Source of the DNA: a virus
Strand: one strand, 5' to 3'
DNA: 15,702 nucleotides
IMG/VR virus record: IMGVR_UViG_3300010391_001881
The notes beneath the pieces were generated by a model. The model was not told where the DNA came from. It ran no database searches and saw only the letters and a list, made by a program, of their open reading frames with translations. Every line of letters begins with the position of its first letter. Position 1 is the stretch's first letter. Below are positions 10,510-10,791 of this stretch, piece after piece. Both the position numbers and the translations under genes were made by a program.

Positions 10510-10791
10510 TTGGACAGTGCTGCCCATCAAAATTACTCCCCACAAGCCCTGCCCGGGCATGATGTGACGGTAGATATTCATGGTGGTTCCGTAGGAGGAG
10601 TGGCGGAGGAGCTTCTGCACGTCCCCCGGCGCCGCGCCGCCGGCGAGCATGATCGAGGCGAAGGTATGCCGGAGGTCGTGAAAGCGCAGGCGCGCGGGAA
10701 GGACGCATGCTGTTTTTATCGTCCCCCAGTGTTTGTTATGCCATCCCTCCCCGGAGAGTGGCTTGTCCCCGTAGCCCTGGAATGCAAATTC
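10510..10791 (-). pseudogene. Tyrosine recombinase/integrase C-terminal fragment (box II to catalytic Tyr only), GC-rich and foreign in composition
   Basis: The minus-strand frame reads ...WHNKHWGTIKTACVLPARLRFHDLRHTFASIMLAGGAAPGDVQKLLRHSSYGTTMNIYRHIMPGQ (HxLRHT box, LL-HSS-TT-Y-H with catalytic Y). About 62% GC versus about 33% around it. It lacks the N-terminal roughly 300 aa and begins in frame right after the MVP TGA stop. Confidence 0.75.

Follow-up and report, generated by a model that had tools for sequence, protein, structure and literature searches.

A fragment of an integrase gene from GC-rich DNA behind a phage major vault protein gene

Under the Hendrix/Hatfull model, phage genomes are mosaics that arise through illegitimate recombination at gene boundaries. 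In site-specific integration, e14 and phage 21 recombine at icd through an attP that supplies a new 3′ end to the gene it enters, and the SSV-type integrases have attP inside the int gene itself.

The locus described here belongs to a phage segment that is AT-rich and encodes 19 tRNAs, every one of them on the minus strand (IMG/VR record IMGVR_UViG_3300010391_001881; the whole stretch of 15,702 nt that was analyzed is referred to as the window). Phage-encoded major vault proteins (MVPs) have already been described in a 2023 preprint (bioRxiv 10.1101/2023.11.10.566534), and the window holds a complete major-vault-protein-like gene of 847 aa (10792-13335, minus strand; PF11978 MVP_shoulder, 4.5e-23; PF17795 Vault_3). 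A GC-rich island directly follows this gene. We put a probability of roughly 0.75 on the reading that the island is an inert internal fragment of an integrase gene that came from a GC-rich temperate donor by recent illegitimate recombination into a variable region of this AT-rich, tRNA-rich phage.

Extent and content of the island

The GC content of the island is 62.1% (10549-10791), against 37.9% in the remainder of the window. The first-pass annotation had given about 62% for the island, which agrees, and 33% for its surroundings, which is a little low. It had also drawn the island as about 280 bp at 10510-10791. Comparison by blastn with the closest relatives (contigs L001, L002, L012, and L013) confines the integrase-derived DNA to 235-243 nt on the minus strand, at 10549-10783 or 10549-10791, and positions 10510-10548 hold no integrase sequence. 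The integrase-derived stretch 10549-10783 has a GC content of 63%. At third codon positions, the value is 79% for the island and 33% for MVP.

Read on the minus strand, the translation passes from the end of MVP into the island as ...KEKS, a stop, and then EFAFQGYGDK...LRFHDLRHTFAS...LLRHSSYGTTMNIYRHIMPGQ, with 78-81 codons of a tyrosine recombinase. The MVP-frame codons directly past the MVP stop (TGA, 10792-10794) spell EFAFQGYGDKPLSGEGWHNKHWGTIKTACVLPARLRFHDLRHTFASIMLAGGAAPGDVQKLLRHSSYGTTMNIYRHIMPGQ. The fragment is in the MVP frame, as had been proposed, and its homology to integrases begins directly after the TGA rather than one codon later, with no start codon following that stop. The Pfam family PF00589 (Phage_integrase) matches the island with an E value of 8.6e-11 over profile positions 124-168 of 172, and the top database protein is a metagenomic sequence, P0001 (E 6e-44, 90% identity). 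Judged by these scores, the match to integrases is far beyond chance. The 78 codons of the island contain no frameshifts and no stops; this is weak evidence taken alone, because GC-rich DNA has few stop codons.

The island had been described as the last 75 or so residues of a tyrosine recombinase, a description that is right as to the family and wrong as to the end of the gene. Contig L014 encodes a full-length member of the family, 368 codons long and made up of arm-binding, SAM-like, and catalytic domains; the island aligns only with its residues 269-346, about 21% of the gene. Because only these residues are matched and the relatives extend on both sides, the island is an internal piece rather than the 3′ end of a gene. 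At the upstream border, the relatives read ...ILMEWRLQSGSP before the point where the island begins and EWVFQG after it. At the downstream border, they continue past PGQ into LERNFEIFNLGSGEQ.GERKTQV and a stop, and these 22-25 terminal codons of the family are missing from the island. What has been kept includes box II H-x-x-R (HDLRH), the His of LLRHSS, and the catalytic Tyr (NIYRH). What is absent includes the Arg-I box, the beta-hairpin Lys region, the arm-binding and SAM-like domains, and the C-terminal tail; the Arg-I box of L013, L014, and P0005 (ALRRSEI/GLRRGEI) falls upstream of the start of the island. A tblastn search of the window found no further integrase pieces, which rules out a split integrase with its other half elsewhere in the window. 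The island has the descent of a tyrosine recombinase, an incomplete catalytic set, and no full-length ORF. With only the residues that it retains, it could not function as a recombinase.

The spacer that separates the island from the following ORF (10383-10548, minus strand) is not integrase-derived; the relatives diverge exactly past PGQ. The integrase frame continues into the spacer for 40 unrelated codons and then ends at a TGA (10426-10428), and a blastn-short search of the spacer against the sequences fetched gave no meaningful match. A role for the island as a structured RNA, terminator, or promoter was considered and rejected, since the Rfam, terminator, and folding tests were all negative. 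Specifically, Rfam gave nothing above noise for the island and spacer, there were no terminator-like sites, and the folding z-score was −0.74, so that shuffled versions of the sequence fold equally well. Given the lack of a terminator, the island probably forms a 3′ trailer on the MVP transcript.

Relatives of the fragment and its probable donor

Where did the fragment come from? Its nucleotide identity is 85.5% to L001, L002, and L012, and 75% to L013. The fragment differs from L001 at 27 synonymous and 11 non-synonymous sites (90% amino acid identity), and the resulting dN/dS of 0.08 indicates that nearly all of the divergence built up in working genes and not in a pseudogene. Together with the high third-position GC, this value points to a recent capture from a working gene, with little time spent decaying or drifting toward the base composition of the phage. 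L013 carries an intact integrase catalytic domain that is 80% identical to the island in amino acid sequence. The contig has a GC content of 57%, and its integrase gene is convergent with a 625-aa tail-fiber-like gene, which is a temperate-phage layout. The best explanation of these relationships is that the putative donor was a GC-rich (about 57%-63% GC) temperate phage or prophage. The earlier view of the island as a recombination scar involving a high-GC donor holds up well: the island contrasts with MVP in third-position GC, has lost sequence from each end, and does not occur in related phages, while contigs with members of the donor family are GC-rich and resemble temperate phages.

The exact donor is absent from the databases searched, where the best match is the 85.5% nucleotide identity given above. 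The island has no nucleotide match among GenBank phages or PLSDB plasmids, and exact island or junction strings were not found in IMG/VR. A protein scan of species-representative genome contigs returned only generic box-II matches, of at most 57% identity over ~46 residues and in many phyla. Similarly, tblastn of the donor-type integrase and the tail-fiber-like protein against cultured phages gave only about 30%-35% identity.

The closest integrase copy, that of L001, L002, and L012, is fused to an XRE-type HTH N-terminus, and P0001 is itself an HTH fusion. In L001 (206-754; the same in L002 and L012), a 182-aa ORF joins an AT-rich XRE-type HTH N-terminus to the C-terminal 120 residues of an integrase, and a divergent Cro-like ORF lies upstream. 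This fusion may be a deletion derivative of the immunity/int region of a temperate phage. It was considered as a second AT-rich/GC-rich junction and set aside, since an internal deletion within one temperate phage, bringing int up against a repressor-like gene, would account for it just as well. Remoter members of the integrase family (58%-62% identity), found in bacterial contigs, are 5′-truncated relics. In L004 (2661-3379), L016 (5977-6415), L017 (608-1046), and L005 (1-465), a convergent tRNA-Met(CAT) stands within 10-100 nt of the relic, with an Asp/Glu racemase gene on one side and zapA-zapB-rplT-rpmI-infC-thrS on the other; this is an integration site that has decayed but is conserved among the contigs.

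Neighborhood, junctions, and the route of capture

Three IMG/VR contigs of 46-114 kb (L009, L010, and L011) encode an MVP that is 78% identical to the one in the window but have no other gene in common with it, so MVP behaves as mobile cargo. Because these phage homologues exist, the provenance of MVP, on which the first-pass annotation had thought the island might cast doubt, is not in question. The 3′ end of MVP was aligned with two of the three, L009 and L010. In both, the gene closes with ...HNK/HK-TAG, and a terminator hairpin comes next, where the window has the island. The MVP of the window is homologous only as far as ...HSK; it lacks the native TAG stop and the terminator hairpin, gains three C-terminal codons (EKS) from junction filler, and ends at a TGA within that filler. 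On this alignment, the island replaces the stop and terminator that trail MVP in other phages. TGA ends 11 of the 22 ORFs in the window, and TAG ends 3. Given that this phage uses TGA more than any other stop, and that two adjoining sequences share a frame in 1 case out of 3, the common frame of MVP and the island is coincidental. The in-frame fusion thus loses the meaning first attached to it, the MVP stop itself lying in the filler. Read-through or recoding of TGA was also rejected, given the number of ORFs that end in TGA and the fact that the sole suppressor tRNA reads TAG.

A 77.6-kb IMG/VR contig (L172) shares ten ORFs in the same order as the window, together with a tRNA array that includes tRNA(CTA). 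It is without MVP, an isochorismatase gene, the island, and a 189-aa ORF that lies just downstream of the island in the window. Because the island is absent from L172 and a terminator stands at its place in L009 and L010, the island lies in a variable cargo region, and the loss of the native MVP stop and terminator puts it at a rearrangement breakpoint within that region. The 189-aa ORF (9813-10382, minus strand; phrog_1035, E 5.3e-6; phrog_28061, E 6.7e-9) contains a 39-nt (13-aa) unit, K...QTPE[YF]KA, repeated six times in tandem. Toward its C-terminus there is a weak match to phrog_1035, which carries the annotation endonuclease VII. The ORF matches no Pfam family and is absent from the relatives found. 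From these matches, it may be a free-standing mobile nuclease gene.

Several other features of the neighborhood were recorded. The isochorismatase-family gene (14473-15090, minus strand) lies between DHH/DHHA1 and thymidylate-synthase-like genes and is missing at L172 7948-8001, a small cargo insertion. Within the tRNA array of L172, a 220-aa ORF (11328-11990) starts, by eye, like a GIY-YIG homing endonuclease and overlaps tRNA-Trp; mobile nuclease genes may be scattered through tRNA arrays of this kind. The tRNA with anticodon CTA, an amber suppressor labeled “Pyl” by ARAGORN, is found at 6206-6278 (minus strand) in the window and is kept at L172 14651-14723. Finally, a tRNA-like T-arm/acceptor fragment (GGATTCGAACC...) at 1697-1727, beside tRNA-Ala (1757-1829), is not called by ARAGORN or Rfam and may be a decayed tRNA gene.

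The junctions carry short repeats. The filler at the left junction (10784-10800, minus strand; about 17-18 nt) holds the MVP stop and cannot be assigned unambiguously to either the MVP relatives or the integrase. The 10 nt at 10783-10792 repeat those at 10823-10832 exactly (AGAATTTGCA, minus strand), the source of the repeat being MVP, 40 nt upstream. Local 10-mer repeats are rare in the window (p roughly 0.03 for the left-junction copy). In addition, the 7-nt sequence AGCCCTG (plus strand) occurs as a direct repeat, with a right copy (10545-10551) that straddles the right junction and a left copy (10772-10778) 227 nt away, just inside the left junction. The chance of a 7-mer common to both junction windows is 0.9%-3.4%. 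Both repeats would fit microhomology-assisted illegitimate joining, although they were noticed post hoc and are suggestive only. A search of IMG/VR with the 189-aa ORF, the right-flank string, and the predicted pre-insertion string returned nothing. Because no empty-site relative was found, we infer the insertion rather than see it directly.

How might the capture have happened? The donor and the AT-rich phage would once have been in the same cell, where break repair or illegitimate, probably microhomology-assisted, recombination could have captured an integrase fragment of ~235 bp. This joining route is read from the short repeats at both junctions, and the initiating break could have been made by the product of the neighboring endonuclease-like gene. 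The fragment would do nothing and would be carried passively in the MVP-to-nuclease intergenic space.

The first-pass annotation had allowed that the island might mark a chimeric assembly junction. On such a reading, assembly or library preparation would have joined into the phage contig a GC-rich piece that belongs to a different genome of the sample. Some observations lean this way: the island is about read-sized, the phage is carried by one sample only, and all of the junction evidence comes from a single run (SRR6159086), the Logan contigs of which were compared with the window. Moreover, the assembly of that run breaks within the island, where contigs L007 (window 15702-10642) and L008 (window 10662-8832), both 100% identical to the window, overlap by just 21 nt (10642-10662). 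However, this phage's Logan contigs are short everywhere, and a break in a GGCGGCGCGGCGCCGGGGG stretch is typical of coverage loss. L007 and L008 span one junction each, deep within independent k-mer contigs (150 nt of island joined to 5.3 kb of phage, and 114 nt joined to 1.7 kb), and misassembly is unlikely because each junction falls within a separately built contig. Both junctions are recovered at 100% identity, though the contigs were probably built from the same reads as the window. A chimera would also need two separate false joins that both return to the same phage, and the two halves of the island are collinear and in frame with one gene. We consider an artifact of this kind highly improbable; the island DNA is foreign and cut at both ends, and on this evidence it is really present in the phage DNA. 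Could it then have been kept because it works, either as a homology arm against the integrase of a resident prophage or as a read-through extension of MVP? An internal gene fragment on a replicon is the layout for single-crossover gene disruption, and the island has an intact open frame, lies in the MVP frame, and has not drifted in GC content toward the phage. Yet it is absent from every relative found, and no target of at least 95% identity is known. The prevalence of TGA stops, the TAG specificity of the only suppressor tRNA, the 1 in 3 chance of a shared frame, and the 40 unrelated codons beyond the island all speak against retention for a function. We give a function of either kind very little credence, and slightly less still to the specific version in which the island would be a working homology arm for single-crossover co-integration with a GC-rich prophage, disrupting the prophage integrase. 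If true, that version would mean that prophage excision is blocked or that the phage gains a place to persist, a new phage-versus-prophage interaction.

The island might alternatively be the remnant of a site-specific integration, for example into a phage tRNA gene used as a pseudo-attB, with most of the element deleted and part of the att-proximal integrase left behind. Integrase genes do sit at the ends of elements, the window is rich in tRNA genes, and the 5′-truncated relics of the bacterial relatives L004, L005, L016, and L017 lie near a convergent tRNA-Met(CAT) beside zapA. The first-pass annotation had pointed to the adjacent tRNA array as the classic target and had suggested looking for att-like repeats. 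However, the tRNA nearest to the island (9308-9397) is about 1.15 kb away, lies on the same strand, runs in the same direction, and is separated from it by the 189-aa ORF. There is no convergent tRNA within ~100 nt, as there is for the relics, and the island is not flanked by tRNA 3′-end repeats. Indeed, no repeat of 14 nt or longer connects the island, or the sequence on either side of it, with a tRNA or with anything else in the window; the only repeats at the island are the 7- and 10-nt junction repeats. In addition, the 3′ end of the integrase gene, which would be att-proximal, is itself missing, and no other donor DNA is left in the window. We regard this origin as unlikely, and the capture of an inert fragment by illegitimate recombination is the reading that we carry forward.

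Significance and comparison with known systems

What are the implications of the island? It is a new example of a familiar type of scar, real but ordinary, and almost certainly non-functional. It is the trace of an exchange of DNA in which one partner was an AT-rich phage with many tRNA genes and the other a temperate phage or prophage of high GC content, which suggests that the two had a common host cell. It may also point to a host that is much more GC-rich than the phage, as is the case for phiKZ and Pseudomonas. In addition, it flags the interval between MVP and the nuclease-like ORF as cargo space that is prone to recombination. The island opens no new question; its main use is as a hint of the other DNA that the phage has met, and in settling the provenance of MVP.

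The lambda-Int-like three-domain integrases (PF00589) share common descent with the island, which is 80%-90% identical in amino acid sequence to the integrase portions of P0001 and L013, but the island lacks most of the gene, including the start, both domains N-terminal to the catalytic core, and the tail. The tRNA-side relics of L004, L016, and L017 are likewise truncated integrases, and of the same family. In contrast to them, the island has also lost its 3′ end, has no convergent tRNA or att repeats, and is carried by a phage rather than a chromosome. Like the attP of the icd type, the island is a phage-borne partial gene copy that could recombine with a chromosomal copy, but it stops short of the end of the gene and has no integrase gene alongside it in the window. 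The SSV-type integrases also yield integrase fragments flanked by non-integrase DNA, whereas the window has no int(N) partner and no tRNA-like att sequence in or beside the island. The model of phage mosaicism describes whole captured genes (“morons”), and here the captured piece is instead a non-coding gene fragment with an unusually large GC contrast. As that model leads one to expect, however, the island has sharp borders at a gene boundary, lies in a variable region, and has short repeats at its joints.
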